Assembly: GCA_964607145.1 (NCBI GenBank)
Contig: CAZSIX010000003.1
Location: forward strand, 74,039 to 138,038
Length of the DNA: 64,000 bases
Reading direction: 5' to 3'
Source of the DNA: an uncultured Planctomycetota bacterium
GTDB lineage: Bacteria; Planctomycetota; JAJSAM01; JAKLKS01
Shown: in pieces, positions 4,417 through 60,259 of the stretch
How positions within the stretch are numbered: the stretch's first letter is position 1
Layout of the letters: every line of letters begins with the position of its first letter
Translations under genes and position numbers: made by a program
The notes under the pieces: model-generated
Databases searched by the model: none
What the model was told of the DNA's origin: nothing
The model's input: the letters and a program-made list of their open reading frames with translations, nothing else

Positions 4417-4507
4417 CGGGACGGAGCGCCCCCCCGGCGCGGAGGCCGGTCGGCGGGCTGACGGCGCGCATCGGCGGCCTGCCTTCGCGGGGCGGAGCGG
4501 AACTCCC

Positions 4508-15910: not shown

Positions 15911-16060
15911 GGGGGCGGAGGATAGCCGCGGCGGGGGGCTCCCTCCACAACGGTCGCGGTGCGGCGTCTGGACCGGGCGGTCCTCGGAGCGTACCATCGG
16001 CCTTGCGGCGGCGGGGAGGGACCACGGGATCCGCGCGGCGCCGCTCCGGGAGGAGGAGAG

Positions 16061-37985: not shown

Positions 37986-38034
37986 CCCCGCCGCGACGAC
38001 GACATTCCCGGAATGTTGCGTGCGAGTTCGCCGC

Positions 38035-38106
38035 TGGGGCGGCCAGGACTCGAACCTGGATCCAAGGGATTATGAGTCCCCTGCTCGACCGATTGAGCTA
38101 CCGCCC
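38035..38106 (-). tRNA. tRNA-Met (anticodon CAT; elongator Met or Ile2 type)
   Basis: Reverse complement GGGGCGGTAGCTCAATCGGTCGAGCAGGGGACTCATAATCCCTTGGATCCAGGTTCGAGTCCTGGCCGCCCCA. Acceptor stem GGGGCGG/CCGCCCC is perfect. Anticodon loop CTCATAA. G1-C72 are paired, so it is not an initiator tRNA. CCA is not encoded. Confidence 0.8.
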
Positions 38107-38200
38107 CGCGGGCGCCATTCTGCGGTCGGCGAGGCGGCCGCGTCGAGGGAACCCCGGCGCGCGCGTTGACTCCCGCGTCGCGGGATCGCATGATGCGGCC

Positions 38201-41200
38201 ATGAGGGGAAACCTGCAGGGTCGCACGGTCGTGCTCGCCTGCGCGCTGGCGGCGGTCGGCGCCGCCGCGTTCGCCGACGGCGTCGGCGTCCGCGCGGTCA
38301 ACGGGGACAAGCTGTCCGCCGCCGTGGACGCGCCGGGCGACGGGGACTCGTTCGCGCTGGACCTGCACGCCGCGGGGAAGTTCTCCGCCACCATCAAGGT
38401 GGCCAAGGGGTCGACCCTTCTCCCGACGCTGCGGCTCTTCCGCCCCGGGGGCGCCGCCCAGTCCCTGCCCCCGCTGACGGGCGCCGGCACGGGGAAGGTC
38501 TCCCTCAAGAACTTCGTCGTCCCCGAGGGGGAGACGGGCACCTGGCGCGCGCTCGTGGAGGGCACCGGCGGCTCCACCGGCGGGTACGAACTGGCGGTGA
38601 AGTGGAAGCCGCCGAAGAAGGTCGCGTTCCCGCCGACGCTCCTCGGACCCGGGGAGGAGCGCGCGTTCGAGTTCCCGCTGGAGGAGGGCGCTTCGTTCAA
38701 GGCCCTCGTCAAGTCCGGGAAGGGGGAGGCCGCCGCGGCCTCGGTGGAGTTCGCCGGGCCCGAGGGCTCGGCGCCCGGGGAGTGGAACGTCGTCGCCGTG
38801 TTGAAGGGCACGAGCCATGCGCTCACGGGCACCCCCGCTTCGGCGACTCCGGCCGCCGCGGGCACCGCGACGCTGATCGTGACCGCGGACGCCGCCGGCG
38901 GGACGTACACCCCCTCGGTCGTCCTCAAGTTCGCGAAGGCGGCCAAGCGGACGGCGCTCCTGCCGACGGAGGCCTCCGTCGGGGGCGTCTCCCCGTCCAC
39001 GCTCCGGCAGTCCAGCACGGGCACGCCGCTGGCGCAATCGATCGACGTCTCGGGCTCCGACTTCCTTCCCGGCACCGTCCTCCGCCAGGACGGCGCGGAA
39101 CCGCTCTCGGCGACGACCTTCGTCTCGTCCGCGCTCCTCCGCGTGACCATGAGCGTCCCCGAGGACGCCCCGTTCGGCACGCGCGACCTGCTGCTCTGCC
39201 CGCCGGAACTCTCCGGCGAGCCGCTGTCGCTCGCGGCGGCGGTGCAGGTGCGCGCCCCGATCCCGACCCTCTCGTCCGTCTCCCCGGCCGTCCTGAAGCA
39301 GGGGGAGGCCGGCGTCGTGCTGACGGTCACCGGCACCGGGTTCCGCGCGGGGGGGAGCATCACGCTGGAGGGGGCCGGTCTCACCCTCGGCTCGACGACC
39401 GTCGTCACGTCGACCCAGGCCCAGGTGACGGTGACGGTGAACTCCGCGGCCGCCGTGGGCGCACGGGACGTCACGTTCACGCAGCCCGCGGCCGGCGGAG
39501 GAGCGGACGTGGTGCGGACCGACGGGATCCAGGTCCACTACCCCGACCCGACCCTCGCCTCCGTCTCCCCCGCGGACGTCACGCAGGGAGTGTCCTCCAT
39601 CCAGTTCACGCTCACGGGCACGGGCTTCCGGGACGGCGGGATCGTGACGCTGGGAGGCGACATCGGCATCTCCGGCGCCGTGCGCCTCTCCGACACGCAG
39701 TACCGCGTGACGCTCGCCGTGGACGCCGCGGCCGCGCTGGGGGCGCGCGACGTGACCTACACGCAGCCCGCCGACGGCGGTTCCGCGTCGAAGACGCTGG
39801 CGGGAGGCCTGGTCGTCAGCGCGCCCACGCCCACCCTCACGACCCTCTCCGGCGCCGTGCTGCGCCAGGGCGCCGTGGCGTCGACGCTCACGGTGAACGG
39901 CACGAACTTCCGCGACGGGGGCGCCATCTCGATCTCCGGCGCCGGCCTGACGCTGGGGACCACGACCATCGTCTCCGCGACCCAGGCCACGGTCCCGGTC
40001 ACCGTGGGGGCCGCGGCGGCGGTCGGACTCCGGGACGTCACCTACACGCAGCCGGTGACCGCCGGCGGCCTGACCGCCACGAAGACGAACGCGTTCCAGG
40101 TCCTCTACCCGATCCCGACGGTCGCTTCCGTCTCGCCGGCCCAGTGGACGCGGGGGGAGACGACGAAGCCCGCGACGATCACCGGGACGGGGTTCCGCAC
40201 GGGGGGCGTCGTGACGACCTCGGGCGCGGGACTGACGCTCGCCTCGGTGGTCGTCGTCAACGACACGACCATCACGCTGAACTACTCCGTGGACGGCGCC
40301 GCCGCGCTGGGCTTCCGCTCCCTCACCTACACGCAGCCCGCCGACGGCGGCGCCGACGCGGCGACGAAGGCGTCCGCCCTCGAGGTCTTCCCCGTGGGCC
40401 CGGAGGTCACGGCGGTCACGCCGTCGGCGTGGATCCCGGGGACGCCCCGGTTCAACGTCGCGCTCACCGGCGTGAACTTCAACTCCGGCACCTCGACGTC
40501 GCTCTCCGGGGCCGGCGTCACCATCCACTCCACCACGTTCGTCTCCTCCACCGCGCTCACGCTCCTCGTCTCCGTCGACTCCGCCGCGGCGCTGGGCCTG
40601 CGCGACCTGACGGTCACCCCGGGTGCGGGCGGCGGCGCGCCGAAGGCGTTCACGGGCGCCGTCGCCATCGCCGGATCGGCGCCGCGGCCGGCGTCCCTCT
40701 CCATCGCGACCCTCGCGCAGGGGGCGACCTCGCTCGCGGTGACCGTGCGCGGGAGCGGCTTCCGCAGCGGGGACACCCTCGCCGCCAGCGGTTCCGGCGT
40801 CACGTTCGCGTCGGTCAGCGTGACGGACTCCGAGACCATCACCGCGCTGGTGACCGCCACCGGGAGCGCCACCACCGGCGCCCGGGACCTCACGGTCACG
40901 CACGCGTCGTCCTCGGGCGGGCTCGCCGGGACGCTGGAGGGCGCCTTCAGCGTCGTGGGCGGCACGCCCACGGTCTCCACGGTCACGCCGGGGACGCTGG
41001 GCCGCACCGCCGGCGGCGGCGCCACGCGCGAGTTCGCCGTCGTGGTCACCGGGACGAACTTCTCCGGCGGCGCGACGCTCACGGCCTCCCGCACGGGCGG
41101 CAGCGGGGTGAGCGTCAAGTCGGGGAGCGAGTCGGTGACCTCGTCCTCGTCGATGGCGGCGACCCTCGCCATCGCCGGCGGGGCCACCGCGGGGACCTGG

Positions 41201-43828
41201 GATCTCAAGGTCACGAACCCCGGCGGAGGGAACGGGACCGGCAGCGGGATCCTCGACATCAAGACGGAGAGCACGCTCGTCGTGAACGCGGTCTCCCCCT
41301 CGTCGGGGACGGCCCACGGCGGCGAGCGCGTCACCGTCTACGGGAGCGGATTCTCGGCCGGCGCGACGGTGGACTTCGGCGCCGTCGCCGCCGGGGGGAC
41401 CCAGGTGATCGACGGCAACACCATCGTCACCACGGCGCCCGTGCCGGCGTCGCTGTCGAAGACCGCGGGGACCACCGTCGCCGTGAAGGTGACCAACCCC
41501 GGCGGCGGGAACGCCAGCCTCGCGTCCGCCTACACCTACGCGGCGGACTCCGGCGCGCCCATGATCGTCTCCACGTTCCCCGCGGACCTCGCCACCGGCG
41601 TGCCCACCAATCTCAGGAAGTACGTGTTCATCCTGAACGAGCCCCTCGCTCTCTCCAGCCTCGGCGCGGGGGACTTCGACTTCTTCGGCTCCTCCTCGCA
41701 GGACATCACCTCGCCGCGCATCCTCTCCTTCGCGGCGCCCGCGGGCACCACTCTCGTCGTCGTCGAGCGCGGGGTCGTGAGCGGCGGAGGGTCGAACGCG
41801 CCGAACCTCGCCAAGAGCAGCGTCTACGCGGCGGACATCAACTCCGGGGCGCAGGATCTCGCGGGCAACGCCTTCACGCCGCTCCCGTTCTTCAGCGGGT
41901 CCATCTACCGGGCGTCCTTCACCACGGGGACCACCACGGACGCGACGGCGCCCACGCTGTCGAGCAGCGTGCCCGCGTCGAGCGCCACCGGGGTGGCGGT
42001 GACGACCGCAGTCTCGCTGGTCTTCTCCGAGGAACTCGACCCGGCCACCGTGGACCTGACGAACATCACGTTCAAGCAGTCGTCCACGACGGTGCCCGCC
42101 GCCATCGCCCTCGGGACGGACCTCCGGACCGTCACCATCACGCCGCTGGGGACGCTGGCCGCCTCGACGACCTACACGACGGCCGTGACCACCGCGGTGA
42201 AGGACCTCTCGGGGAATGCCGTCGCGGCGACCGTCTCGCGCACGTTCACGACGGCCGCCTCCGACGGGATTGTGCCCACCGTGGACGCCGTCGTCTTCGA
42301 GGACATCCGGTCCGACATGGACGGCTCGACGACGTGGGTCTCCGGCACCGACACCGACTCCAACGGCAATCTCCAGTCCGCCGGTTCCACGGTGGGGTTC
42401 GACCTCTACCTGCCGCGGGCGGGGTGGGAGGTCGTGGTGCGGTTCTCCGACGCCGGCGGCGCCGGCATCGACACGTCCACGTTCTCCGCGAAGGCGAGCG
42501 TGGCCGTGGGGAGCGCCTCCGCCAATGCGGAACTCGCGTCGCAGTTCCAGGTGACCCCGACGGAGGCGCGCTGGCGCGTGCCGGCGACGGGCACCGTGCC
42601 CGGCTTCACCACGGGGGAGGACGTGACGCTCACCTTCCTCGTCAAGGACCGGAACGCGAACACGTCCCTCTCGAAGGTCGTCACGTTCGACGTGGTGGAC
42701 AAGGACGGGTCCGCCACGGGAAGCGGGAGCAAGGGCGGGGCGACGGGCGGGGATCACGACCCCCTGGACGCGCGGCAGACCTGGATCCTCCGGGGCGACC
42801 TCGACGCCTACACGGCGTCCTACGCGACCAGCGGGAGCGACGTCGGGGCGACGTCCACGATCTCCTCGAACTCCATCCCCGACCTCGACGAGGCGCTCCG
42901 CCTCATCGGCCTGAACACCGGCTCCATGACCACCGCCGCCGCCGCCACGATGAACGGCACGGAGCGCGGGACCAACGCCATCGTCCGGCAGCGCTTCCTC
43001 GATCGCGTGCGGGCGAGCCTGCGCGCCCACTTCGGCATCGCCGAGGACGGCGTGCGCGACGCCGGCTCCGTGGACATCGAGTTCCTCCTCCCCGGCGAGC
43101 AGGGCGCGCTCACCTCCATGCCCGCGTACTCCGCCGCCAACGCGTTCAGCAGCGGGAAGGCGTTCTCCGAGATCTCCATCGGCGGACCCTTCGGCGCCGA
43201 GGGGAACGCGTTCACGACGGGACCGGTCCTCGGGCTCGCGTGGATCGACGCGCGGAACACCCGGCAGGAGGCCAACCTCAACTTCGGCTCGGGCGGCAAC
43301 ACGACGGGGATCTTCCTGATGGGCATGCTGAAACTCCAGGTCAACGACTCCTCCGCGACGCTGTTCGGCGGGTCCATCTCCGACGTGTTCGTGACGGCGC
43401 GGGGAGGGAAGCCCGTGGGGGAGGACGCGCTGGACGACAACGTCCTCGCGGACACCTTCGATCGCACGTCCGGCGGGAACTCCGCCGCGGAGAACGTCCG
43501 GTACGACGCCATCATGGACGCCGTGGAACTGGTGGCGTTCTACGTGGGCACCGTCACCGCGCACGAGATCGGGCACTCCACGGGGCTCGTGGCCGACGGG
43601 GCGCCGAAGCCCGGGCTCTTCGGCAACGCCCACCGCAGCAACTCGTTCACCGAGGCGACCAGCGCCAACCCGAACACGTCGTTCCACCTGAACTACCCGG
43701 GCGTGGACATCATGGCGCCGTCGGTCGGGTTCGAGACGGCGGTCGCCACGGGGACCGATTTCCCCGTCTTCAATCCCGTGGAACTGGCCTACCTGCGCAA
43801 CCGCAGCGTCATCGACGAGGGGAAGTGA
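38201..43828 (+). CDS. Giant secreted multi-domain protein (1875 aa): N-terminal PPC-like domain, ~10 tandem Ig-like repeats, SbsA/Big-like domains, and C-terminal HExxHxxG zincin-like (putative metalloprotease) domain
   Basis: Signal peptide MRGNLQGRTVVLACALAAVGAAAFA. PPC-like segment DGDSFALDLHAAGKFSATIKVAKG. The repeat motif ..PT(L/V)xSVSPA...QG.....T.TGTGFR.GG..T..GAG.T.....V.S.TQ..V.V...AA.G.RDVTYTQPA.GG recurs about 10 times. Near the C-terminus is VGTVTAHEIGHSTGLVADGAP (HExxHxxG..D). Possible leaderless promoter: TTGACT, a 17-nt spacer containing palindrome CCCGCGtCGCGGG, then CATGAT 7 nt before the ATG. Confidence 0.85.
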   Translation: MRGNLQGRTVVLACALAAVGAAAFADGVGVRAVNGDKLSAAVDAPGDGDSFALDLHAAGKFSATIKVAKGSTLLPTLRLFRPGGAAQSLPPLTGAGTGKVSLKNFVVPEGETGTWRALVEGTGGSTGGYELAVKWKPPKKVAFPPTLLGPGEERAFEFPLEEGASFKALVKSGKGEAAAASVEFAGPEGSAPGEWNVVAVLKGTSHALTGTPASATPAAAGTATLIVTADAAGGTYTPSVVLKFAKAAKRTALLPTEASVGGVSPSTLRQSSTGTPLAQSIDVSGSDFLPGTVLRQDGAEPLSATTFVSSALLRVTMSVPEDAPFGTRDLLLCPPELSGEPLSLAAAVQVRAPIPTLSSVSPAVLKQGEAGVVLTVTGTGFRAGGSITLEGAGLTLGSTTVVTSTQAQVTVTVNSAAAVGARDVTFTQPAAGGGADVVRTDGIQVHYPDPTLASVSPADVTQGVSSIQFTLTGTGFRDGGIVTLGGDIGISGAVRLSDTQYRVTLAVDAAAALGARDVTYTQPADGGSASKTLAGGLVVSAPTPTLTTLSGAVLRQGAVASTLTVNGTNFRDGGAISISGAGLTLGTTTIVSATQATVPVTVGAAAAVGLRDVTYTQPVTAGGLTATKTNAFQVLYPIPTVASVSPAQWTRGETTKPATITGTGFRTGGVVTTSGAGLTLASVVVVNDTTITLNYSVDGAAALGFRSLTYTQPADGGADAATKASALEVFPVGPEVTAVTPSAWIPGTPRFNVALTGVNFNSGTSTSLSGAGVTIHSTTFVSSTALTLLVSVDSAAALGLRDLTVTPGAGGGAPKAFTGAVAIAGSAPRPASLSIATLAQGATSLAVTVRGSGFRSGDTLAASGSGVTFASVSVTDSETITALVTATGSATTGARDLTVTHASSSGGLAGTLEGAFSVVGGTPTVSTVTPGTLGRTAGGGATREFAVVVTGTNFSGGATLTASRTGGSGVSVKSGSESVTSSSSMAATLAIAGGATAGTWDLKVTNPGGGNGTGSGILDIKTESTLVVNAVSPSSGTAHGGERVTVYGSGFSAGATVDFGAVAAGGTQVIDGNTIVTTAPVPASLSKTAGTTVAVKVTNPGGGNASLASAYTYAADSGAPMIVSTFPADLATGVPTNLRKYVFILNEPLALSSLGAGDFDFFGSSSQDITSPRILSFAAPAGTTLVVVERGVVSGGGSNAPNLAKSSVYAADINSGAQDLAGNAFTPLPFFSGSIYRASFTTGTTTDATAPTLSSSVPASSATGVAVTTAVSLVFSEELDPATVDLTNITFKQSSTTVPAAIALGTDLRTVTITPLGTLAASTTYTTAVTTAVKDLSGNAVAATVSRTFTTAASDGIVPTVDAVVFEDIRSDMDGSTTWVSGTDTDSNGNLQSAGSTVGFDLYLPRAGWEVVVRFSDAGGAGIDTSTFSAKASVAVGSASANAELASQFQVTPTEARWRVPATGTVPGFTTGEDVTLTFLVKDRNANTSLSKVVTFDVVDKDGSATGSGSKGGATGGDHDPLDARQTWILRGDLDAYTASYATSGSDVGATSTISSNSIPDLDEALRLIGLNTGSMTTAAAATMNGTERGTNAIVRQRFLDRVRASLRAHFGIAEDGVRDAGSVDIEFLLPGEQGALTSMPAYSAANAFSSGKAFSEISIGGPFGAEGNAFTTGPVLGLAWIDARNTRQEANLNFGSGGNTTGIFLMGMLKLQVNDSSATLFGGSISDVFVTARGGKPVGEDALDDNVLADTFDRTSGGNSAAENVRYDAIMDAVELVAFYVGTVTAHEIGHSTGLVADGAPKPGLFGNAHRSNSFTEATSANPNTSFHLNYPGVDIMAPSVGFETAVATGTDFPVFNPVELAYLRNRSVIDEGK
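39250..41530 (+). repeat. Tandem ~95-aa Ig-like domain repeats within giant protein 1 (coding)
   Basis: At least ten consecutive units share the TGTGFR.GG ... RDVTYTQPA.GG pattern. Read from the translation; nucleotide-level identity was not assessed. Confidence 0.65.
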
Positions 43829-43829
43829 C

Positions 43830-45038
43830 ATGGGATCCCGCCTCCACCGCCCGTTCGCCGCCGTCGCCCTTCTCGCGGCGGCCCTCGCCCCCGCGGCCCG
43901 TGCGGAGACGCGCGACCCGCGGACCCTCACGCTCGGGTGGCTCACGGAGCGCGCCGCCGTCGTCGCCCTCCTCACCGTCGACGAGGCGACGGGGGAGGGG
44001 CCGCTGCGGGAGGCCCGCGCGCGCGTGGACGAGGTGCTGCGCGGGGCGGCCCTCCGCGCGGGGGAGGCCGCCGTCCTCGCCTTCCAGGACACGGGGCACG
44101 GCGTCCCCTGGGTGCCCGGGGCGCGCCACCTCGCGTTCCTGGAGCCGGGGCCCGCGGCCGCCGACGGATCCGCGCGCTGGGGGTTCGTCTCCGGGTTCCA
44201 CGGGCTGAAGCGGGTCGTCACGGAGGGCCCCGAGGGCCGATTCCCCGATCTCGTCCGCGCCTACGCGGCGCTGCTCGACGGGGAGGGGCTGCCGACCCGG
44301 CGCGAGGCGCTGCGGGCGCTCCTCGTGGAGTGGATGGGGGATGGAGACGCCGGCGTGCGGTGGAGCGCGGCGACGGACTTCGTGCGCATCGCCGGCCTCC
44401 GCGACGGGATGGCCGAGGACGAGCGGGCGCGCGTGGCGGCGGCGTTCCGCGCGGCGCCGTCCGGGAAGGACGACAAGGGCGCGCTGGCGGTGGCCACGGG
44501 CCACGCCGGCGGCTCCGACGCCGCGGCGGCGCTCGTGGAGGGACTGGCGGACGCGCGGGCCCGGGAGTTCCGCGGCGACGTGGCGGAGGGGCTCCGGCGC
44601 CTCGGGGATCCCGGCGCGCCGGCCCGGCTCGCCGCGACGCTGGAAGGGGCCCCGCCGCCGCGGCGCGCCGACGTCGCGTTCGTCCTGGGGAGGAGCGGGG
44701 ATCCGGCGGGGGCCGCCACGGCGCGGGCGCTGGTGGCCGACGCCGCGGGGGAGGTGCGCATCGAGGCCGCCCACGCCGTGGGCCTGCTGGCCCGGGCGGA
44801 GCGGCGGCGGGACGGCGAGTCCCGGAGCGCGGGCCGCGCCGAACTCCTGTCCATGTTCGAGCAGGCCGCGGACGCGTGGCAGGAGCGGCGGGCCGCCCTC
44901 TGGGCCCTCGTGCAGCTGGACGACCCCGAGGCGTTCGCCGCCGTGCGCCTCCTGGCGGAGAGCCACGGGGATCCCCGCGTGAGAGCGGAGGCCGCGCAGC
45001 GGCTCCGGTTCCCCAGGGAGTCGCTGATCCTGCGGTAG
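43830..45038 (+). CDS. Secreted HEAT/PBS-lyase-type repeat protein, translationally coupled to giant protein 1
   Basis: ATG 2 nt after the giant gene's stop. Signal peptide AAVALLAAALAPAARA. Ala/Leu/Arg-rich helical repeats with periodic D-x-x-VR and G-D-P motifs (GDPRVRAEAAQRL). Confidence 0.7.
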   Translation: MGSRLHRPFAAVALLAAALAPAARAETRDPRTLTLGWLTERAAVVALLTVDEATGEGPLREARARVDEVLRGAALRAGEAAVLAFQDTGHGVPWVPGARHLAFLEPGPAAADGSARWGFVSGFHGLKRVVTEGPEGRFPDLVRAYAALLDGEGLPTRREALRALLVEWMGDGDAGVRWSAATDFVRIAGLRDGMAEDERARVAAAFRAAPSGKDDKGALAVATGHAGGSDAAAALVEGLADARAREFRGDVAEGLRRLGDPGAPARLAATLEGAPPPRRADVAFVLGRSGDPAGAATARALVADAAGEVRIEAAHAVGLLARAERRRDGESRSAGRAELLSMFEQAADAWQERRAALWALVQLDDPEAFAAVRLLAESHGDPRVRAEAAQRLRFPRESLILR

Positions 45039-45068
45039 CCCCCCGCGGCGGGGGGGTACGATCCCGCC

Positions 45069-46328: not shown

Positions 46329-46367
46329 GGCCCCCGGGCGCCACGGCCGGCCTCCGCCGGCCCCGTC

Positions 46368-48872: not shown

Positions 48873-49111
48873 GGACCCATTCTGCGGCCCCCCGGGGGCG
48901 GCGGCAAGGCGGTTCGCCCGCGCCGCCCGGCGACCCGTTCCCCCGCGCGGACCCCCGGACGTCGAAGGAGGGGTGGGCGGTGCGGCCCGCAATGGGACGG
49001 GGAGCGGTTGCATGAGGCGGGATCCCCGCCTAGGATTGGACGGTCGCCGGGGCGCCCACGACGCGCCCGCGGTCGCCGGTCCGCCGCAACGCCGGAACAC
49101 GAGGAGAACCG

Positions 49112-51340: not shown

Positions 51341-51344
51341 GACC

Positions 51345-53489
51345 GTGGACCTGCACAGAGCCGCGACTCGCCTGCTCCCGCTGGCCCTCCTCGGGCTCGC
51401 CTCCGCCTCCGCGGCGCTCGCCGCCGACGTCAAGGACCCGGGCTACGACGCCGCCCTCCGGGAGGCCAAGAAGTCCATCCGGAGCCTCCCCGAGAAGGTC
51501 CGCCAGCCCATGGCGAAGGAGGGGCAGAACTTCCTCGATCAGCACCAGAAGGCGGACCGCTACACGGAGGCGCAGAAGGACATCCAGGCCCGCGTCGCCG
51601 CACTGGACGCGCTGGCGGCGCTGAAGGACACGCGCGTCTTCGAGGAGATGACGAAGTTCCTCCCCGGGCTGAACAAGGAGGTCGAGCGGACGCGGGTCGA
51701 ACTGGACGAGTCCACGGAGAAGTACGAGAAGGTGCGCCTTCCCTACTTCGAGGCCCGCGAGGAGGAGTTCCGCCGCACGGGCGCCTGGCCGACGACGATC
51801 CTCGTGAATCTCGGCAAGACGCTGGACACGCTGGAGTGGGACCAGACGGAGTGCGCCATCGCCTACGACCGCGCGCTCCGGCTCCGGGACGCCGCCACCG
51901 CCGGGCTGGGCGTCAACCTCGCCTCCCTGGGCGAGGCCCGCGACCTCGTCTGGAAGGCGGCGGTCAAGTTCGGCCTCGAGAGCAAGGACCCGTGGGATCG
52001 CGTGGCGTTCTGCGAGGCGACGAAGGCCATGGCGGGGAAGGAGGCGGACGCGATCCTCCTCCAGATGGAGGCCAAGGACTCGGATCCGAACGTCGTCGCC
52101 GCGGCCATCGGCGCCCTGGCGGCCCGCCGCTCCGAGGCCGGTTTCCCGAAGATCGTCGCCCGCGTGGCCAGCCCCGATGACCGCATCGCCATCGCCGCCA
52201 TCAAGGGGATCACCGGGTACCGCTCCCCGGACACCATCCCGACCCTCGTCGCGCGGCTGAAGTCGGCGGAGGGTCGCATCCTGGAGGACATCGTCGAGGC
52301 GCTGTTCGGCCTGACGGGCAAGCACCTCCCCGACGCCCACTCCGCGTGGGAGGGGTGGTGGAAGGAGAACGGGCGGACGTTCCTCCGCCGCTGGGACGCG
52401 GACGTGCAGGTGCGGAAGGACGAGATCGAGGCCATCGGCCTCACGGACGGTCGCCTCATCGACGTCCCCGCGGAACTGGCGGCGCTCCTCCCCACGGAGT
52501 CCGACCAGGGCTGCCGCGACGCCATCCTGGAGAACCTCTCCATCCACAAGTCGGACTTCGCCCGCCGCACGCTGATCGCCAGTCTCGCGGACCCCGCTCT
52601 GCCCACCCGCATCGCCGCCATCCGCGGGCTCGCGCAGTACCGCCACATCAGCGTTCCCGAGGAACTGATCCGCCGCGTCCCCCTGGCCGGGAAGGAGGAA
52701 CTCCAGGCCATCTACCAGACTCTGCGCCTTCTCTGGACGGCGGAGGAGTTCGCCTGCCGCGCCGCGGAGCGCGAGCCGCTGCTCCAGTGGTGGACCTCGG
52801 TGAATTCCCGCGTCGCCGAGCAGTTCCAGAAACTCGGCGAGCGCGCCAAGGACATCGCCTCCGGCAAGCAGCAGGAGGGGGAACTGGACGCGCAGTGGCG
52901 CGACCGGAACTTCTACGGCCTCCGCATCCTCTCGAACCGCGTGCTGTTCGTCGTCGACGTGTCCCTGTCCATGGAGGAGCCGGCGCAGAAGGGCTCGGCG
53001 CTGGCCGACGAGGTGGCGTCCAAGCGCACGAAGCTCGAGGTGGCGAAGTCGGAGATGACCCGCGTCATCCGGACGCTGCCCGACGACACGCTGTTCGGGA
53101 TGGTCTTCTTCTCCGTGACGGAGCAGGTGTGGGACGACGGCATGGTCCTGATGAACTCGGCGAACCGCAAGAAGGCGCTCAAGTGGGTCGAGGACCTCAA
53201 GCCCAAGGAGGCGACGAACATCTACGACGCCCTCGAGACGGCCTTCGAGATCGGGACCCCGAAGTCCCCGGTCCGCGCGGCGGGGGCGCCGGACACCATC
53301 TACTTCCTGTCGGACGGCGCGCCCACGGCGGGCAAGTACCTGAAGCCGGACATCATCCGGGAGCACGTGCGCCGCTGGAACAAGACGCGCGGCGTGAAGC
53401 TGCACGTCGTCGGCGTCGGCGCGGACCACGACATCCTGTTCTGCCGGTCGCTGGCCGAGGAGAACGGCGGGTACTACGTCGCCCGGTAG
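51345..53489 (+). CDS. Secreted HEAT-repeat protein with C-terminal von Willebrand factor A (vWA) domain
   Basis: GTG start 5 nt after the previous stop. Signal peptide LLPLALLGLASASAALA. vWA MIDAS-like motif VLFVVDVSLSMEE ... TNIYDAL ... IYFLSDGAPT. Confidence 0.7.
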   Translation: MDLHRAATRLLPLALLGLASASAALAADVKDPGYDAALREAKKSIRSLPEKVRQPMAKEGQNFLDQHQKADRYTEAQKDIQARVAALDALAALKDTRVFEEMTKFLPGLNKEVERTRVELDESTEKYEKVRLPYFEAREEEFRRTGAWPTTILVNLGKTLDTLEWDQTECAIAYDRALRLRDAATAGLGVNLASLGEARDLVWKAAVKFGLESKDPWDRVAFCEATKAMAGKEADAILLQMEAKDSDPNVVAAAIGALAARRSEAGFPKIVARVASPDDRIAIAAIKGITGYRSPDTIPTLVARLKSAEGRILEDIVEALFGLTGKHLPDAHSAWEGWWKENGRTFLRRWDADVQVRKDEIEAIGLTDGRLIDVPAELAALLPTESDQGCRDAILENLSIHKSDFARRTLIASLADPALPTRIAAIRGLAQYRHISVPEELIRRVPLAGKEELQAIYQTLRLLWTAEEFACRAAEREPLLQWWTSVNSRVAEQFQKLGERAKDIASGKQQEGELDAQWRDRNFYGLRILSNRVLFVVDVSLSMEEPAQKGSALADEVASKRTKLEVAKSEMTRVIRTLPDDTLFGMVFFSVTEQVWDDGMVLMNSANRKKALKWVEDLKPKEATNIYDALETAFEIGTPKSPVRAAGAPDTIYFLSDGAPTAGKYLKPDIIREHVRRWNKTRGVKLHVVGVGADHDILFCRSLAEENGGYYVAR

Positions 53490-53562
53490 GGCGATCGCCC
53501 ACCCGGCCGGCGGGTATGATCCGGCGGCCCGGATCCGGGGGGGCCCGGCGGGAGGCGAGGAG

Positions 53563-54762
53563 ATGTCCATGGGGCAGCGGCGGGGCCGGTCGCGCACGTG
53601 CCGTGGATCCGCCGGCGCCGTCGCCATCGCCCTCGCGGTGGCGCTGCTGTCGGCCCCCGACGGTGGGGCCGTCGCGCAGGACGGCGGCCCCGCGGGCGTC
53701 CAGCCGCAGGCCTTCTTCAAGGGCAAGGTCCTGTCGATGAAGGGGCGGCGGATCGAACTGTCCTACGACTTCCAGGACCCGGCGCAGATCGCCGACTGGA
53801 CCCACACGCATCCCTTCCTCACGCCCCCCACGACGGGGGGCTGGCGCGTGGAGGGCGGGGCCCTCCGCGGCGAGGGCTCCTGCGCCGCCCGCCATCGCGC
53901 CGTGTTCGACGGCGACGTCGCGGTGGAGGCCACCATCTCCAGCGAGAAGGCCAGGGACTTCGGAGCCGTGGTGATCTCCGAGGAGGGGACCACCTTCACC
54001 CTCTTCTCCCTGAACGACGCCTACTTCTCCTTCAAGGACGGGCGCCTCCCCAACGAGCACATGGTCACGACGTTCCTTCCCGCGGGCACGGGTCCCGGCG
54101 GCACGACGTTCTGGCGCTACGTCCAGACCGTCTACGAGCCGCGCGTGGGCGCCGACCCGGTGAAGATCTCGCTCCGGAAGAAGGGGGCGAACAACGAGTT
54201 CCGGTTCGCCGGCACCGGGCGGCTCGGCGGCGATGACGTCGAGGCCCGCGTGGGGCCCGCGTTCTTCCCCGCGTTCTACGTCATCGAGTCGCGCGCCGTC
54301 GTCAAGGACGTGAAGGTCTCCGGCATCCTCTCCACGGCCTGGCTCCGCCAGAACGGGATCGCCTTCGAGGACACCGTGCCCGAGGGACCGAAGCCCGGAG
54401 ATCCCCCTCCCGCTGCCGGCGGCCCCCCGTCGCGCGTGGAGGACGCCCCCTGGCGGGCGCTCGCCGCCGTCGTGGCCAATGGATCGCTCTCCCGCGAGGA
54501 GCGCGAGAAGGCGGCGAAGGATCTCATCGCCACGAAGGAGAAGCGTGCCGTCCGCGCCATGATCGACATCCTCTACAACGAGGCCGACGAGGACGGACGC
54601 GAGATCGCCTACGGCGTCTTCAAGGGCATCTCGGGGAAGGACGCCGGGTACCGGCCGACGGGCGACGCCGAGGCGCGGCAGAAGTCCATGGAGAACGTCT
54701 GGAAGGTGTGGCTCGCCCTGCGCACCGCCGCCGAGCGCGAGGAAGCGAAGCAGGGGAAATGA
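53563..54762 (+). CDS. Secreted protein with DUF1080/LamG-like domain and C-terminal HEAT-like segment
   Basis: Signal peptide AVAIALAVALLSAPDGGAVAQ. RBS GGAGGCGAGGAG. The central region resembles concanavalin-like DUF1080 (GKVLSMKGRRIELSYDF...W...GGW..EGGALRG). This is an inference. Confidence 0.6.
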   Translation: MSMGQRRGRSRTCRGSAGAVAIALAVALLSAPDGGAVAQDGGPAGVQPQAFFKGKVLSMKGRRIELSYDFQDPAQIADWTHTHPFLTPPTTGGWRVEGGALRGEGSCAARHRAVFDGDVAVEATISSEKARDFGAVVISEEGTTFTLFSLNDAYFSFKDGRLPNEHMVTTFLPAGTGPGGTTFWRYVQTVYEPRVGADPVKISLRKKGANNEFRFAGTGRLGGDDVEARVGPAFFPAFYVIESRAVVKDVKVSGILSTAWLRQNGIAFEDTVPEGPKPGDPPPAAGGPPSRVEDAPWRALAAVVANGSLSREEREKAAKDLIATKEKRAVRAMIDILYNEADEDGREIAYGVFKGISGKDAGYRPTGDAEARQKSMENVWKVWLALRTAAEREEAKQGK

Positions 54763-54788
54763 TCCGGGTCCGCCCCGGGGAGGTCGCC

Positions 54789-55364
54789 ATGTCCCGTCCC
54801 GTCCCGTACGTCCGCCGCGGGCTCGCTCTCGCGGCCCTCCTCGCCGCCGCCGCCCTCGCCCCCTCGCCCCGTGCCGGGGCCCAGGACGCCGACACGCCGC
54901 TGGATCGCTCCCTCCAGAAGGTCGAGGCGCTGCTCACCTCCCTCAAGGCCTCCGGCGGCGCCGACCCCGCCCTGGTCCGGCAACTGGAGGCCATCGCCAA
55001 GGACCTCCGGGAGGCGAAGGCCGCCGCCGGTGCGGCGACTCCTCCCCCCGCCGGTGGCGGGCCCGGCGCGGGCGCCGGTGCCGGCGCCGGTGCCGCCGCG
55101 GGGGCGAGCCGCTGGCTGATCGACCGCGTGATGGAGGGCGTCGAACTCAACGAGAAGGACCGCAAGGTGGCCGAGGACCTGCTGACGGTGTTCGGCGAGG
55201 ACTACGCCCTCGCCCGCCTCCACAAGGATGATCGGTCGAAGCAGGTCCTCAAGTCCGACGTCGAGGATCGGATCGACAGGGCGCTTCCCCGGCGCGAAGC
55301 CGGCAAGATCAAGAACAACCTCGCCACCCAGTTGCGCTGGATGGAGTGGGGGGGGCGGAGGTAG
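54789..55364 (+). CDS. Small secreted hypothetical protein (191 aa) with low-complexity GAGAGAGA linker
   Basis: RBS GGGAGG before the ATG. Signal peptide LALAALLAAAALAPSPRAGAQ. The helical C-terminal part looks protein-like. Confidence 0.55.
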   Translation: MSRPVPYVRRGLALAALLAAAALAPSPRAGAQDADTPLDRSLQKVEALLTSLKASGGADPALVRQLEAIAKDLREAKAAAGAATPPPAGGGPGAGAGAGAGAAAGASRWLIDRVMEGVELNEKDRKVAEDLLTVFGEDYALARLHKDDRSKQVLKSDVEDRIDRALPRREAGKIKNNLATQLRWMEWGGRR

Positions 55365-55602
55365 GTCGGGCGCCGCGGGGCGCCCCTCGGCCCCGCCGTC
55401 GGCGACCCGCTCCCGCCTCCGGCGCGGCGATCCGCCCCCGTCGGCGTGGCCCGCCGGAGGGGCGCCCCCCTGCGGTCCCTCTCCCGGTCCCGGTGCGGTC
55501 ACCGCCGCGCCTGCTGGCCCCGTGGCGCCGCGGGTGATAGGGTCAGGTGAGTGTCCGTTCGTTGTGGAGCGGCCGCCGACGACCAACTCCCGGAGGGGCA
55601 GC

Positions 55603-58600
55603 ATGCGCCGAACCACCGCCGCCGCGCTCGTGACCGCCGTCCACGCCGCCGTGCTCGCCGGGGCCCTGGCGGGGGGCGGTCTCGACCACCGGCTCATGCC
55701 GGGGCAGACCGCCACGGGCAGCATCGGCGAGACCGGGGAGGAGGATCTCCTGCTCCTCCAGACCTTCCCCGGGCAGAAGATCACGGTGCAGATCAAGGCG
55801 CGGTCCGGCGAGTCGCTGCTCCCGGAGTTGACGTCGCTGCTGAACCCCGCGGAGCAGGACGTCCTCGGCTCCGCCATCGTGAAGACGTCGAAGAAGGGCG
55901 ACGTCGTGACGCTCAAGTCCCTCGTCTCCCCGTCGGGAGGGACCTGGGTCCTCGGACTCGGGGGGGACGGCGGCACCACGGGGACCTACGACATCAAGAG
56001 CAAGGGGTCCCCGTCCAACGCCCGCCTCGGCGCGGGCGACGTGGCGTCCCCCGGCGCCGAAGTCCCCCTCGAGTTCGCCGCCGAGGCGGGGTCCGACGTG
56101 GCCATCCAGGTGAAGGCGGACCAGGGTCAGTCGCTGCGTCCCCTGGTGGCGCGCATCGAGGGGCCGCAGGGGACGGTGAACCTCGGCTCCGCGGCGCGGA
56201 AGACCTCCGCGAAGAAGGACTCGCTGAAGGGAGTCCGCCTCGCGGACAACGGGACCTACACGGTGTTCGTCACCGGCGACGAGGGCACGACGGGAACCTT
56301 CACCGCCCTCATCAAGGTGGGGAAGACGGTCCCCCTGGACTTCTCCGTGGATCCCACCGGCGATCCGCCGCCCCCGGGTCCCCCCGCGGTCACGGCCGTG
56401 AACCCCGGCGAGTACGACGCGCCGTCGACGGGCAACTCCATGACCGTGACCGGCCTGCGCTTCGTGAGCGGGGCGCAGGTGTCGTTCACGCCGGCCACGG
56501 GGATCACCGGCCTCTCGACCTCGTTCAACTCCGCCACGAGCCTCACGGCGACCTTCGACGTCGCGGGGGACGCCACCCCGGGCCTCCGCTCGGTGACCGT
56601 CACCAACCCCGACACGCAGACCGGCACGAAGGCGAACGCGTTCAGCGTCGTCGCGGGTCCGACGGGCGTCGAACTGAACGCCGTCACTCCGTCCTCCGGT
56701 CCCGGCGCCGGGGGGACGCGCGTGCTCCTCCAGGGGGAACTGTTCGGCAACGTGACGGAGGTGCTCTTCGGGACCGAGCCGGCGCAGGCCATCCTGCGCG
56801 TGGACGCGGAGAACATCCTCTGCACGGTGCCGCCCGCGGCCGCGGTCTCCGCCACCGGCGCGTCCTCCGTGGACGTGTCCGTGGAGGTGGACGGCAACGA
56901 GACCGCCACCCTCGTCGGCGGCTGGACCTACGACGCGGACCCGAGCCCTCCGAAGGTGGCCGCCCAGGTCCCGGCGCTCAACTCGACGGGCGCGCCGCGC
57001 AACCTCCAGAAGGTGGTGCTGTTCCTCGACGAGCGGCCCGACCCGGCGTCCGTGGTCACGGGCAACTTCCTCTTCTTCCGGTCCAGCGTGTCGGGCCCCA
57101 ACGACATCATCAACCCGTCGGTGACCGGCGTGGCCGTGGGCGCCGGCGGACGATGCATCGTCGTCCAGCGCGGCGGGGCGACGGGGGGCACCCTTTCCGC
57201 CACCAGCACCTACGTGACCCAGATCTCCAACGGCGTCACCGACGTCGCGGGCAACCCCCTCGACCCGACCCCCTTCGGCGGGAGCGTGTTCCAGGGGAGT
57301 TTCGCGACGGGCGCGGGCACCGACGCGACGGCGCCGACGGTGGTGTCCACGACCCCCGGCGCGTCGGCCGTGGGTGTGGACATGGACGGGACCGTCTCGA
57401 TCCTGTTCTCCGAGGCCATCGACCCGTCGCTGCTCGCCGGGGCGTTCTCCCTCAAGCAGGGGCCCACCAACATCCCCGGGGACCTGGACGTCGACCAGAC
57501 GCTGACCACCGCCACGTTCACGCCACGGTTCCGCCTGGCACCGTCGACGACGTACACCATCGGGATCGCCACCACCCTCCGGGACCTGAGCGCGAACGCG
57601 CTCGCGACGGCGCTCTCGAGGACGTTCACCACGGCCGCCGCCGACGGGACCGCTCCGACGGCCGTCCTCACGGTGGACGTCCTCCCGCAGGACATGAACG
57701 GGTCGGGGACCTACGTCAACTCCGGAGGCACCGGGGGCAACGCGTTCGACGCCTACCTCCCGCGCAGCGGCTTCACCATCGACCTCGAGTTCACCGATGC
57801 GGGGGGCAGCGCCGTGGACGCGTCCTCGCTCACCGTCACGTGCGACCGCGCCATGGGGAGCGTGTCCGGAGGCGCCGAACTGGCGGGGTTCTTCACCGCG
57901 ACGCCGCTCGGCGGGACCTGGACCGTGCCGGCGGCCAACGCGCTGGCCGTCAACAGCAACGTCACCTTCACCGCCCGCGTCTCCGACAACGCCGGCAACC
58001 AGTCCCCGCAGGTGACGCTCGTGGTGGACGTGGCCGACATCACGAAGAGCACCTCCGGCGGCAGCGCGAACGCCTCCACGGATCGCGATCCCTTCAACGT
58101 GCGCCAGGTCTGGCTGCTGCGGTTCGATCAGGACATCTACGCCACCTCCTCCACGGGCAGTTCCACCATCACCGTGAACTCGAGTCTCCCCGGCGGAGGG
58201 AACGGCACGCTCGACCTGCGCGAGGACCTGGCGCTCGTCGGCCTCAACGGGACGGAGTCGGGGACCGGGGCGGCCTCCGTGACGAACGGGTCGAGCACGG
58301 GCACCAACGCCATCGTGCAGCGCATCTTCCGGGAGTCCGTGCGCGGGTACCTGAACCTGCGCTACGGGATCGCCTTCGACGGCACGCGGAGCGCCGACAG
58401 CGTGGACGTCGAGTTCCTCCTGGCCGGCGAGCAGGGATCCCTCTCCGCGGTGCCCGACCCGGCGACGTGGAACTCGGGCAGGGGGTACTCGATGCTCTCG
58501 TGCACCGGGGACGAGAGCCCCAACTCCTCGAACACGGCCATCGGGCGCGCGAACTTCGACCTGCGCAACACGCAGCAGGACGACGACAGCAACACGGGCG

Positions 58601-59121
58601 TGGGCGGCGGGAACAACCTGGGCGCGTTCCTGACCCACATGATCCGCAAGCGGATCAACGACTCCACGGGGACCCTGTTCCGGGACGTCTTCGATCCGCT
58701 CATCCCCGCGCGGAGCGGCACGGCGGTCGGCGCGTCCAACCTCGACGCCACGGTGCTGTCGGGGTCGTTCAACTACGCCACGGCCACGCAGCCGCAGAAG
58801 GACCGCTTCGACCTCATCATGACCGCCATCGATCACATGGCGCTGTACCTGTCCTTCGTCGCCGCGCACGAGGTCGGCCACTCGGTCGGACTCGTCGCCG
58901 ACGGCGCGCCGCCGGCGGGGCTGTTCGGCGGATCGCACGAGGGCAACACGTTCATCACCGACGGCGGCTTCACCACGTCGGGCCACATCGACACGCCGGG
59001 GAACAACCTCATGGAGGCGGCCTCCCCGTTCTCGGAGGCCGTGGCGCAGGGGTCCGCGTTCGCCCGGTTCGGTCCCATGAACGCGGCATGGCTGCTCAGG
59101 AGGTTCGTGTATGACCAGTGA
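55603..59121 (+). CDS. Giant secreted protein 2 (1172 aa), paralog of giant protein 1: N-terminal PPC-like domains, Ig-like domains, C-terminal HExxHxxG zincin-like domain
   Basis: RBS GGAGGGG before ATG 55603. Signal peptide AAALVTAVHAAVLAGALA. Two PPC-like segments (EEDLLLLQTFPGQKITVQIKA; SDVAIQVKADQGQSL). C-terminal VAAHEVGHSVGLVADGAPPAGLFGG aligns with giant 1; both also share (FN)VRQ.W.LR.D.D.Y and GAEGNAFTTG / GTNAIVQR blocks. Confidence 0.85.
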   Translation: MRRTTAAALVTAVHAAVLAGALAGGGLDHRLMPGQTATGSIGETGEEDLLLLQTFPGQKITVQIKARSGESLLPELTSLLNPAEQDVLGSAIVKTSKKGDVVTLKSLVSPSGGTWVLGLGGDGGTTGTYDIKSKGSPSNARLGAGDVASPGAEVPLEFAAEAGSDVAIQVKADQGQSLRPLVARIEGPQGTVNLGSAARKTSAKKDSLKGVRLADNGTYTVFVTGDEGTTGTFTALIKVGKTVPLDFSVDPTGDPPPPGPPAVTAVNPGEYDAPSTGNSMTVTGLRFVSGAQVSFTPATGITGLSTSFNSATSLTATFDVAGDATPGLRSVTVTNPDTQTGTKANAFSVVAGPTGVELNAVTPSSGPGAGGTRVLLQGELFGNVTEVLFGTEPAQAILRVDAENILCTVPPAAAVSATGASSVDVSVEVDGNETATLVGGWTYDADPSPPKVAAQVPALNSTGAPRNLQKVVLFLDERPDPASVVTGNFLFFRSSVSGPNDIINPSVTGVAVGAGGRCIVVQRGGATGGTLSATSTYVTQISNGVTDVAGNPLDPTPFGGSVFQGSFATGAGTDATAPTVVSTTPGASAVGVDMDGTVSILFSEAIDPSLLAGAFSLKQGPTNIPGDLDVDQTLTTATFTPRFRLAPSTTYTIGIATTLRDLSANALATALSRTFTTAAADGTAPTAVLTVDVLPQDMNGSGTYVNSGGTGGNAFDAYLPRSGFTIDLEFTDAGGSAVDASSLTVTCDRAMGSVSGGAELAGFFTATPLGGTWTVPAANALAVNSNVTFTARVSDNAGNQSPQVTLVVDVADITKSTSGGSANASTDRDPFNVRQVWLLRFDQDIYATSSTGSSTITVNSSLPGGGNGTLDLREDLALVGLNGTESGTGAASVTNGSSTGTNAIVQRIFRESVRGYLNLRYGIAFDGTRSADSVDVEFLLAGEQGSLSAVPDPATWNSGRGYSMLSCTGDESPNSSNTAIGRANFDLRNTQQDDDSNTGVGGGNNLGAFLTHMIRKRINDSTGTLFRDVFDPLIPARSGTAVGASNLDATVLSGSFNYATATQPQKDRFDLIMTAIDHMALYLSFVAAHEVGHSVGLVADGAPPAGLFGGSHEGNTFITDGGFTTSGHIDTPGNNLMEAASPFSEAVAQGSAFARFGPMNAAWLLRRFVYDQ

Positions 59122-60259
59122 GACCCGCATCGCCATCGCCGTCGCGGCCGTCGTCGTCGCCTCCGCGTGGACGCCGGCCCGCGCCGAGAGCCGGGCGGAG
59201 GAGGACGTGACGCCGCTGGCGCTCCTCCGCGTGGCCGACGCCGTCGTGGTCGCCGCCCCTGCGGCGGGCGGATCCGGTCTGGTCGTGGAGACGGCGCTCG
59301 TCGGTCCGCTGGCCGCCGGCTCCACCGTCGTCCCGCTGGACGAGGGGGGGCTCCGGCCCCTCGTCCCGCCCTCCGGCCGGGTGGTCGCCCTGCTGCGACG
59401 GAGCGGCGTCGAGGGGTGGGAGGTCCCCGGCGGCCCCCTCGGGTGGTTCCCCGCGGGCGAGGGTCCCGGCGGCGGCGCGGCCGCGGATCTCTTCCGCGCC
59501 CTCGCCGCGGCGCGCGAGTTGCCCGCTCCCGCGGCCCGGACGGCCGGCCAGCGGGCGGCGCTGGTGGCGGCGGTGCGCGACGGGGACGCCCGGCTGCGCG
59601 CGGGCGCCGCGCTGGACCTCCTCACGGACCCCGCGACCCTGGCGGACGCCACGGAGGCCGAGCGCGCCGCGCTCGCCGCCGCGTTCCGCGCCTGCGGACC
59701 CCGCGAGCGGGCCCGGGCCCACCTGGCGCCGATCCTCGGGCGCGTCCGGGCGCCCGGTGCCGCGGCGGATCTCCTCGGCGCGCTCGAGGGACCCGGGGGG
59801 GACGTGCTCGCCGCGCCCGTCGGCGCGGGCCTCGCCCTGCTCGAGGACCGTGCCGCCCTCGACGCCCTCGCGGCGCGCGCGGTGACCGTGGATCCCGGGA
59901 TGCGGCTCCGCGTGGCCGTCGCGCTGGCCGCGACGCGCCATGCCGCGGTCCGCCCGGCGCTGGCCTCCCTCCTCGGGGACGGAGACGTGCGGATCCGCCG
60001 CGAGGCGGCGACGGGCCTCGGCGCGCTCCGCTCCGCCGACGCGGCTCCGGCGCTGCTGGCCCGGTTCCTCGGGGAGGGCGCCGCCGCGGCGGAGTCCGCC
60101 GCGCCGGTCCGCCGCGCCCTGGCATGGGCCCTCGCCCAGTGCGACGCCCCGGAGGCGTGGACGGCGCTCCGCGACGCCGTCGAGCGGGACCCCGACGACG
60201 CGTTCCGGGCCTTCGTGCGGGACACCCTCGCGAACCCGCGCCGGGCGTTCGTCCGGTAG
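59111..60259 (+). CDS. Secreted HEAT-repeat protein, translationally coupled (11-nt overlap) to giant protein 2; paralog of the 43830..45038 gene
   Basis: ATG overlaps the 3' end of the giant gene. Signal peptide IAIAVAAVVVASAWTPARA. Ala/Arg/Leu HEAT-like repeats (DGDARLRAGAALDL, GDGDVRIRREAATGLG). Confidence 0.7.
   Translation: MTSETRIAIAVAAVVVASAWTPARAESRAEEDVTPLALLRVADAVVVAAPAAGGSGLVVETALVGPLAAGSTVVPLDEGGLRPLVPPSGRVVALLRRSGVEGWEVPGGPLGWFPAGEGPGGGAAADLFRALAAARELPAPAARTAGQRAALVAAVRDGDARLRAGAALDLLTDPATLADATEAERAALAAAFRACGPRERARAHLAPILGRVRAPGAAADLLGALEGPGGDVLAAPVGAGLALLEDRAALDALAARAVTVDPGMRLRVAVALAATRHAAVRPALASLLGDGDVRIRREAATGLGALRSADAAPALLARFLGEGAAAAESAAPVRRALAWALAQCDAPEAWTALRDAVERDPDDAFRAFVRDTLANPRRAFVR

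Follow-up and report, generated by a model that had tools for sequence, protein, structure and literature searches.

Two planctomycetal gene cassettes pairing a giant Ig-like protein that bears a putative metzincin-fold peptidase with a HEAT-repeat protein that may be its cognate inhibitor

Two neighboring gene pairs in the chromosome of an uncultured member of the Planctomycetota raise the question of why a giant exported protein should be tied, twice and with hardly any intergenic space, to a HEAT-repeat protein. Both pairs lie in a stretch of 64,000 nucleotides (contig CAZSIX010000003.1, positions 74,039 to 138,038 of the forward strand), referred to here as the window, and we call their products giant 1 and partner 1, and giant 2 and partner 2. 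It seems to us highly probable that the C-terminal domain of the giants has a metzincin fold and that giant and partner are functionally paired. On the combined statement, in which a protease is encoded together with a cognate TIMP-like inhibitor or latency partner, the evidence is in our view evenly balanced, and as regards specific TIMP-like inhibition by the partner we are slightly more doubtful than convinced. The features of the two cassettes are as follows (coordinates are those of the window).

38201..43828 (+): giant 1 coding sequence, 1875 aa; signal peptide, two unassigned beta domains, immunoglobulin (Ig)-like stalk and C-terminal protease-like domain; GC content at third codon positions (GC3) 0.97
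39257..42253 (+): giant 1 Ig-like stalk, aa ~353-1351; CoaZ_rpt_PGGG x8, TIG, Big_5 x2
42278..42730 (+): giant 1 beta-sandwich-like domain directly before the catalytic domain, aa ~1360-1510; alignable between both giants
42758..43825 (+): giant 1 C-terminal domain, 356 aa; putative zinc peptidase of predicted metzincin fold, with no Pfam or NCBIfam model
43562..43585 (+): HEIGHSTG in giant 1, aa 1788-1795; putatively two zinc-ligand His, catalytic Glu and metzincin Gly
43685..43714 (+): giant 1, candidate third-ligand His (aa 1829) through putative Met-turn Met (aa 1838); 33 residues are inserted between the Gly of the motif and this His
43830..45038 (+): partner 1 coding sequence, 402 aa; starts 1 nt past the giant 1 stop (TGAcATG)
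43905..44267 (+): partner 1 NTR/TIMP-like N-terminal beta domain (predicted), beginning at the predicted mature N-terminus, Glu26
44268..45035 (+): partner 1 HEAT-repeat solenoid (AlphaFold2 model)
55603..59121 (+): giant 2 coding sequence, 1172 aa; signal peptide, beta domains, CoaZ repeat, TIG, Big_5 x2 and catalytic domain
58060..59118 (+): giant 2 C-terminal metzincin-like domain, 42% identical to that of giant 1; HEVGHSVG at 58867-58890
59111..60259 (+): partner 2 coding sequence, 382 aa; 11-nt overlap with the end of giant 2

The window has a GC content of about 74%, and its six-frame lists of open reading frames (ORFs) are rich in artifacts, so that real genes were picked from them by a GC3 filter and by translation. 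The long minus-strand ORFs that cover the giants (e.g., 37949-44221 and 55543-60225) were discarded as artifacts expected at this composition. The start of giant 2 at 55603 is supported, because the in-frame stretch before its ATG (55228-55602) has a non-coding composition (GC3 of 0.75 and 0.86 at second codon positions) and a GGAGG stands 8 nt upstream. The two giants are 39% identical over 936 aa (E value of 1e-162), and their N-terminal regions can be aligned too (28% over 321 aa), while the two partners show weak similarity to each other (33% over 262 aa, E value of 2e-4). All four proteins have plausible Sec signal peptides, of the Ala-X-Ala type in both partners. The preliminary description of this DNA had placed two paralogous modules of giant and HEAT-repeat protein at these positions, with the signature HE(I/V)GHS(T/V)GLVADGAP in the giants and signal peptides on the downstream proteins, and all of this was recovered, both partners carrying HEAT_2 repeats. 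The long Ig-like arrays that it reported were recognized as well, in giant 1 by NCBIfam NF058597 (CoaZ_rpt_PGGG; E value of 5e-54, eight stretches), Pfam TIG (E value of 3e-15) and Big_5 (E value of 6e-22). N-terminal PPC-like domains, which it had also proposed, found no confirmation in Pfam or in a PDB sequence search, and of the two gene junctions the 11-nt overlap in cassette 2 stands but the 2-nt gap in cassette 1 is in fact 1 nt.

The argument for a peptidase comes from the fold and the motifs of the C-terminal domain. With 25 sequences as input, the AlphaFold model (predicted local distance difference test [pLDDT] of 84.7 and predicted template modeling score [pTM] of 0.87) displays the beta-sheet upper subdomain and the active-site helix of a metzincin catalytic domain. 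The last ~350 residues of both giants matched nothing in Pfam or NCBIfam, and no Pfam model for the catalytic domain was found with ten family members scanned; a weak phmmer match to ADAMTS13 lands on the HExxH motif itself, and divergent relatives, L034 and L037 among them, give sub-threshold Pfam matches to Matrixin, Reprolysin and DUF4953. Motif conservation was counted over 164 relatives carrying HExxHxxG, and in all of them (164/164) H269, E270, H273 and G276 (domain numbering) are invariant. Further downstream, H310 is found in 163/164 and M319, nine residues past the His, in 162/164. This His lies 20 to 34 residues beyond the motif, with a conserved loop (V.DG.PP.GLFGG...) between Gly and His. 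The canonical third-ligand position (+10) is never His or Asp in the 164 relatives, being occupied by P, A, Q or K, and position +11 is D in 59, N in 50 and P in 23 of them. The main family does not carry the extended motif HExxHxxGxx(H/D) of the metzincin clan, and the canonical HExxHxxGxxHD is confined to the divergent relatives at loci L033, L034 and L037. Two of these proteins (L034:3718-6606 and L037:4720-6246) have the canonical motif together with the His-to-Met spacing of nine seen in the split-motif family, as well as a partner gene, and their sequences appear to link the split-motif family to ordinary metzincins. Most simply, the alignment can be read as the insertion of a conserved loop that separates the third His from the metzincin Gly, and it is probably this downstream His that binds zinc.

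The suggestion in the preliminary description of a zincin- or metzincin-like module can therefore be kept as far as the fold is concerned, on the strength of the structure model, but not in its snapalysin-like version (HExxHxxG...D). An Asp third ligand of the snapalysin type was rejected, since the Asp of HEIGHSTGLVAD is at +11, one residue off, and is variable among relatives. Adamalysins/ADAMs, archaemetzincins, MMPs and snapalysin all have the third ligand within HExxHxxGxx(H/D), whereas here it would come after the 20-to-34-residue loop; moreover, the present domain is larger (~356 aa), goes unrecognized by Pfam and NCBIfam and always stands behind a conserved beta-sandwich domain. The latter accompanies the catalytic domain throughout the family, the profile matching most members from profile position ~15-95 on. 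Leishmanolysin/GP63 (MEROPS family M8) is a metzincin in which a long insertion sets the third His far from HExxHxxG, with the Met-turn after it. The layout of the giants' domain, with a third His beyond an insertion and a later Met, is comparable, and motif, third His and Met-turn are the hallmarks of M8 (PMC6899020), but neither sequence nor structure placed the domain in that family. As modeled, the catalytic domain would represent an undescribed family of putative zinc metallopeptidases of metzincin fold, and with its split zinc motif it offers a well-defined variant of the metzincin active site that is open to experimental test.

To estimate the extent of this family, 1.84 billion representatives were scanned with the full profile, giving 1094 matches at an E value of ≤1e-3, 540 at ≤1e-10 and 267 at ≤1e-30, some of the weaker of which may stem from the Ig-like columns of the profile. 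The best 147 members have a median length of 600 aa; 21 reach at least 1000 aa, and the longest has 4171 aa. A genome scan yielded 31 loci, almost all from metagenome-assembled genomes of Planctomycetota, with a few from Myxococcota and Bradymonadales. Locus L027 is labeled Luminiphilus (Gammaproteobacteria), yet it has 72% GC and a planctomycete-type module and may be mis-binned. Far below the yield of the profile scan, a word-index search returned 23 protease-domain relatives, all metagenomic, and three to five true partner relatives. The same search recovered both partners at 100% identity (P0171 and P0175), not the window's own giants.

The pairing of giant and partner turned out to be conserved in related genomes, and far more widely than the preliminary description had supposed. 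Among 40 loci with readable downstream sequence, nearly all planctomycetal, about 32 have a homologous partner directly 3' of the giant, most with gaps of -11 to +3 nt and the widest with +95 nt, and no terminator-like site was found between giants and partners. Twelve loci are close relatives (the two window cassettes, L003-L008, L038, L039, the P0176 contig and L002), and in all but L002, which has no partner, the start codon of the partner is separated from the giant stop by -11 to +1 nt, as in the junctions TGAcATG, ATGA and TGATG. When all ORFs of the retrieved loci were clustered against one another, a second group emerged, comprising 14 loci in which proteases of ~1000 to 1476 aa end in ...AYLRQRILLR and a ~331-aa signal-peptide gene overlaps the stop codon by 4 nt (ATGA) in every case (14/14). 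The partner gene is also present in a third group (L009-L012 and L022) and beside the proteases of L034 and L037. Comparison of the alignments with hhalign gave probabilities of 98.1% for group 1 against group 2 (E value of 9e-14), 98.3% for group 3 against group 1 (E value of 2e-14) and 97.0% for group 3 against group 2, and the partners of L034 and L037, each taken singly, reached 94 to 95% against group 1; the profiles thus indicate that all partner groups form one homologous family. A narrow partner hidden Markov model (HMM) that found close relatives only had suggested a pairing limited to one clade, which the ORF clustering overturned. The extreme C-termini of group-2 proteases (L014-L031; ...AYLRQRILLR) and group-1 partners (...PRQSLILR; window 45015-45035) are alike. 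At L006 the partner gene (L006:1257-2818) is split over two frames, suggesting a frameshift or an assembly error.

Pairwise identities of protease domains and partners are correlated (r of 0.87 over 21 non-independent pairs), the partner evolving faster. Gene order is preserved around each cassette as well: L038 and L006 have giant, partner and the PALP/ACT gene in the order of cassette 1, while the P0176 contig has giant, partner and Na+/H+ exchanger, as in cassette 2, and the orthologues on P0176 and L039 also keep the 11-nt overlap of that cassette. The orthologues of each paralogue keep their own partner and flanks, which points to duplication as a unit, and the two cassettes are in all likelihood ancient paralogues, each with its own cognate partner.

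What the partner might do is suggested by its architecture. Neither partner nor protease domain has a Pfam or NCBIfam model of its own, the partners matching HEAT_2. The AlphaFold2 model of partner 1 (pLDDT of 88.3 and pTM of 0.84) begins with the signal peptide, goes on with a beta domain of five strands flanked by helices (residues ~27-146) and ends in a HEAT solenoid, and the predicted N-terminal domain has the oligonucleotide/oligosaccharide-binding (OB)-fold barrel with flanking helices that is typical of TIMP and NTR domains. At the sequence level, hhalign comparison of the group-2 N-terminal domains with TIMP1-4 gave a probability of 46% and a pairwise E value of 2e-4, pairing ADVVVRATV with ADVVIRAKAV of TIMP-2 (its sequence verified against 1br9) and an xCCGRSL loop with AVCGVSL; such evidence for kinship with TIMP/NTR domains is only suggestive. 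The predicted first residue of the mature partner is Glu in 8/8 group-1 proteins (ARA|E[TS]), Gln in 12/12 group-2 proteins and acidic in group 3. Signal peptidase needs no conserved residue at +1. A conserved first mature residue is therefore what would be expected if a free N-terminus were functional, as it is in TIMPs and serralysin inhibitors. The HEAT repeats are of the phycobilisome (PBS)-lyase type (HEAT_2/HEAT_PBS), but a PBS-lyase (CpcE/F) function was discarded on account of the signal peptides, the metzincin-like gene as constant neighbor and the lack of phycobiliprotein genes among the window genes scanned. The preliminary description had offered inhibitor, chaperone or adaptor as roles for the HEAT protein, and a cognate inhibitor or chaperone is indeed plausible, although the distinct TIMP/NTR-like N-terminal domain had escaped it.

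We propose that each cassette is a two-gene operon, both products of which would leave the cytoplasm via the Sec pathway. The giant would be a long Ig-like stalk bearing a metzincin-fold zinc metallopeptidase at its extreme C-terminus, with a split zinc site in which HExxH provides two His and the catalytic Glu, followed by the metzincin Gly, the loop of 20 to 34 residues, the third His and, nine residues on, the Met of the Met-turn. Its translationally coupled partner, in which a signal peptide is followed by a beta domain of TIMP/NTR fold, conserved at its mature N-terminus, and by a HEAT solenoid, would form a 1:1 complex with the protease domain, periplasmic or extracellular, and keep the protease latent. 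In such a complex, the TIMP-like domain would fill the active-site cleft with its free N-terminal segment, and the HEAT solenoid would contribute affinity and specificity. Latency would protect the producer and set the timing of activation of a surface-displayed or secreted protease. We infer this binding and inhibition from the fold predictions and from the conservation of the gene pair.

Precedents exist for the several parts of this proposal. Serralysin and Inh/AprI are a metzincin and an adjacently encoded periplasmic inhibitor that sits at the active site. The serralysin inhibitor is covered in the discussion of the Listeria study cited below (PMC8235301). The Acinetobacter metzincin CpaA likewise has a dedicated partner from the neighboring gene, the chaperone CpaB, whose tail occupies the active site and blocks it in the periplasm (PMC7542363). 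In their folds, these partners are nevertheless unrelated to the ones found here, CpaB being membrane-anchored and Inh an 8-stranded barrel, and the proteases are secreted by type II (CpaA) and type I (serralysin) systems, whereas no secretion system was identified here. A similar layout is that of Mtz-Tim in Listeria monocytogenes, where a secreted metzincin gene is followed by a promoterless gene for an exported protein with a TIMP-like fold, a pair conserved in many Gram-positive bacteria (PMC8235301). The likeness is one of layout and fold, a metzincin gene directly followed by that of an exported TIMP-like protein. The Listeria pair is phage-associated and consists of a small metzincin and a TIMP-like lipoprotein without HEAT repeats that is cleaved by the protease, whereas the cassettes described here are chromosomal, planctomycetal and made up of a giant multi-Ig protease and an NTR-like domain fused to a HEAT solenoid. 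With TIMPs and NTR (C345C) modules the partner N-terminal domain shares the OB barrel with helices, the conserved free N-terminus and, in group 2, the strand-A and "CG" loop motifs; unlike TIMPs, it begins with Glu, Gln or Asp and gives no HMM-level match, and it is followed by the HEAT solenoid rather than by a TIMP C-terminal domain.

Several observations weigh against a latent metzincin held by a TIMP-like inhibitor. In the model of the C-terminal domain, pLDDT falls below 50 at residues 280-291 and 305-312, which cover the proposed third ligand, so that the metal site lies in a poorly modeled part of the domain. The NTR/TIMP assignment of the partner was built on a model from five sequences, and HMMER searches with the partner N-terminal domains against Pfam (E value of ≤10) and PDB retrieved no TIMP or NTR match. 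The hhalign similarity to TIMPs is seen in one subgroup only, the pooled partner alignment reaching a probability of 2.5% against TIMP1-4, and the partners have neither the N-terminal Cys1 nor the disulfides that define TIMPs (Cys1-Cys70 and Cys3-Cys99). To our knowledge, NTR modules such as C345C are not inhibitors themselves. About 8/40 loci lack a partner, including L001, L002 and the Myxococcota and Bradymonadales members; these partnerless loci are mostly non-planctomycetal or of the lipoprotein type. Finally, the TIMP-like protein of Listeria is a substrate of its metzincin and no demonstrated inhibitor (PMC8235301).

The partner could instead be a dedicated periplasmic folding or secretion chaperone, or an adaptor for surface anchoring, comparable to CpaB or to the lipase foldases, with blocking of the active site incidental or absent. 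The tight translational coupling implies a 1:1 stoichiometry, HEAT solenoids are generic protein-binding scaffolds, and the protease model has a disordered lower subdomain that might require a partner in order to fold. This explanation would, however, leave the TIMP/NTR-like N-terminal domain and the strictly conserved mature N-terminal residue unaccounted for, and the signal peptide of the partner is cleavable, with no membrane anchor. The roles of chaperone and inhibitor are also compatible, CpaB having both. We regard a pure chaperone or adaptor as unlikely, but still worth serious attention.

A polymorphic toxin-immunity pair, in which the giant would be a delivered metallopeptidase toxin and the HEAT protein its Imm-HEAT-type immunity protein, has the layout in its favor: the exported protein is large and rich in repeats, its C-terminus is an enzymatic tip, and directly after it comes a small gene for a cognate protein. 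HEAT-repeat immunity proteins and zincin toxin domains have been described in such systems, planctomycetes included (PMC3482391). Nonetheless, polymorphic toxins keep their N-terminal scaffold constant and vary in their C-terminal tips and in the immunity genes that match these, and here the variability is reversed, the C-terminal ~600 aa being conserved and the N-terminal regions differing in length between ~500 and >4000 aa. In many cases the family member is a stand-alone protein ~600 aa in length, neither orphan cassettes for toxin or immunity protein nor RHS or filamentous hemagglutinin repeats nor pre-toxin domains were seen, and the synteny of both cassettes with housekeeping genes is stable across genera. 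We consider this explanation improbable.

Equally hard to favor is a role of the partner as a substrate or pro-effector, cleaved by the protease to release an active TIMP-like fragment. It is how the Listeria Mtz-Tim pair works, the only bacterial metzincin/TIMP-like case studied experimentally so far (PMC8235301), and the succession of NTR-like domain and HEAT solenoid would provide an obvious cleavage point. However, Listeria Tim is a lipoprotein freed by cleavage, whereas the partners described here have ordinary signal peptides with no lipobox and show no sign of a processing site.

The preliminary description had also regarded the region as a 22-kb island of secreted proteins that begins directly downstream of a tRNA-Met gene, a classical integration site. 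This tRNA gene was located with ARAGORN.

38035..38107 (-): tRNA-Met (CAT); divergent from giant 1 and outside the system

That the cassettes were acquired horizontally at this site is very improbable in spite of the 93 nt that separate the tRNA from the start of giant 1 and of the richness of the region in large exported proteins, for the tRNA is on the minus strand with the cassettes at its 5' end, its 3' end has no second copy in the window, GC (~0.74) and GC3 (0.94 to 0.98) are alike inside and outside the region with no break at the tRNA, no integrase or transposase domain was seen among the window genes scanned, a threonine-dehydratase-like PALP+ACT gene sits between the cassettes and a Na+/H+ exchanger gene is likewise interspersed, and the relatives show the same synteny with no tRNA near the orthologous cassettes. 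The region is ordinary chromosome, not an integrated island, and its 22 kb do not encode secreted proteins throughout.

Better preserved was the proposal that giant 1 is transcribed as a leaderless mRNA, the element on which it was based being present in the window.

38166..38194 (+): promoter-like TTGACT-N17-CATGAT, 6 nt upstream of the ATG of giant 1; one found, 0.1 expected by chance

Equivalent elements precede the orthologous giants of L007 (TTGACA-N17-GATGAT at 852-880, ATG at 889) and L038 (TTGACG-N17-CAAGAT at 3802-3830, ATG at 3840), so that in all three the -35/-10-like elements end 6 to 9 nt before the ATG. This conservation supports a leaderless or near-leaderless mRNA for giant 1, the leaderless start itself remaining a candidate.

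Other genes of the window deserve mention. A third pair of peptidase and HEAT protein is found at 49112-53489, where a DUF1570 protein with HEATH...HEGVAEY zincin motifs and TPR repeats (49112-51340) is followed after 4 nt by a signal-peptide HEAT+VWA protein (51345-53489); homologues of the latter adjoin protease-family genes in L007, L009-L012, L019 and L022. Divergent from the DUF1570 gene, the minus strand encodes a signal-peptide protein of ~830 aa (46368-48872) with six stretches of HEAT_2 and, at the C-terminus, ~300 aa that form a non-HEAT domain; the ORF start listed for this protein (49100) is probably too far upstream. A 399-aa signal-peptide protein without Pfam match lies just upstream of giant 2 (53563-54762). 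Much farther upstream are two very large genes, for a 1642-aa subtilase (15926-20854; Peptidase_S8 and NPCBM_assoc) and a 1701-aa Ser/Thr kinase (3797-8902), and the genes around them resemble ordinary chromosome.

In its broadest form, our proposal is that of a widespread, unannotated planctomycetal module, in which a new metzincin family with a split zinc site is combined with a TIMP/NTR-fold inhibitor fused to a HEAT solenoid; we advance it tentatively, with more reservation than confidence. The ~1,100 cluster representatives of the protease domain indicate a sizeable enzyme family that is annotated only as "hypothetical" or "Ig-like," and, for biochemical work, the module would bring each enzyme together with a specific inhibitor of its own. 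For the origin of TIMP/NTR inhibitors, it is relevant that a bacterial protein of predicted TIMP fold is so firmly tied to a metzincin. If insertion of the N-terminus into the active site holds, the TIMP-metzincin partnership would not be an animal invention but either ancient or convergently re-invented in bacteria, where it would control giant surface proteases. Planctomycetota encode many giant exported proteins of unknown role, and for one class of them the cassettes provide a working hypothesis, namely, that they may be latent, stalk-mounted proteases.

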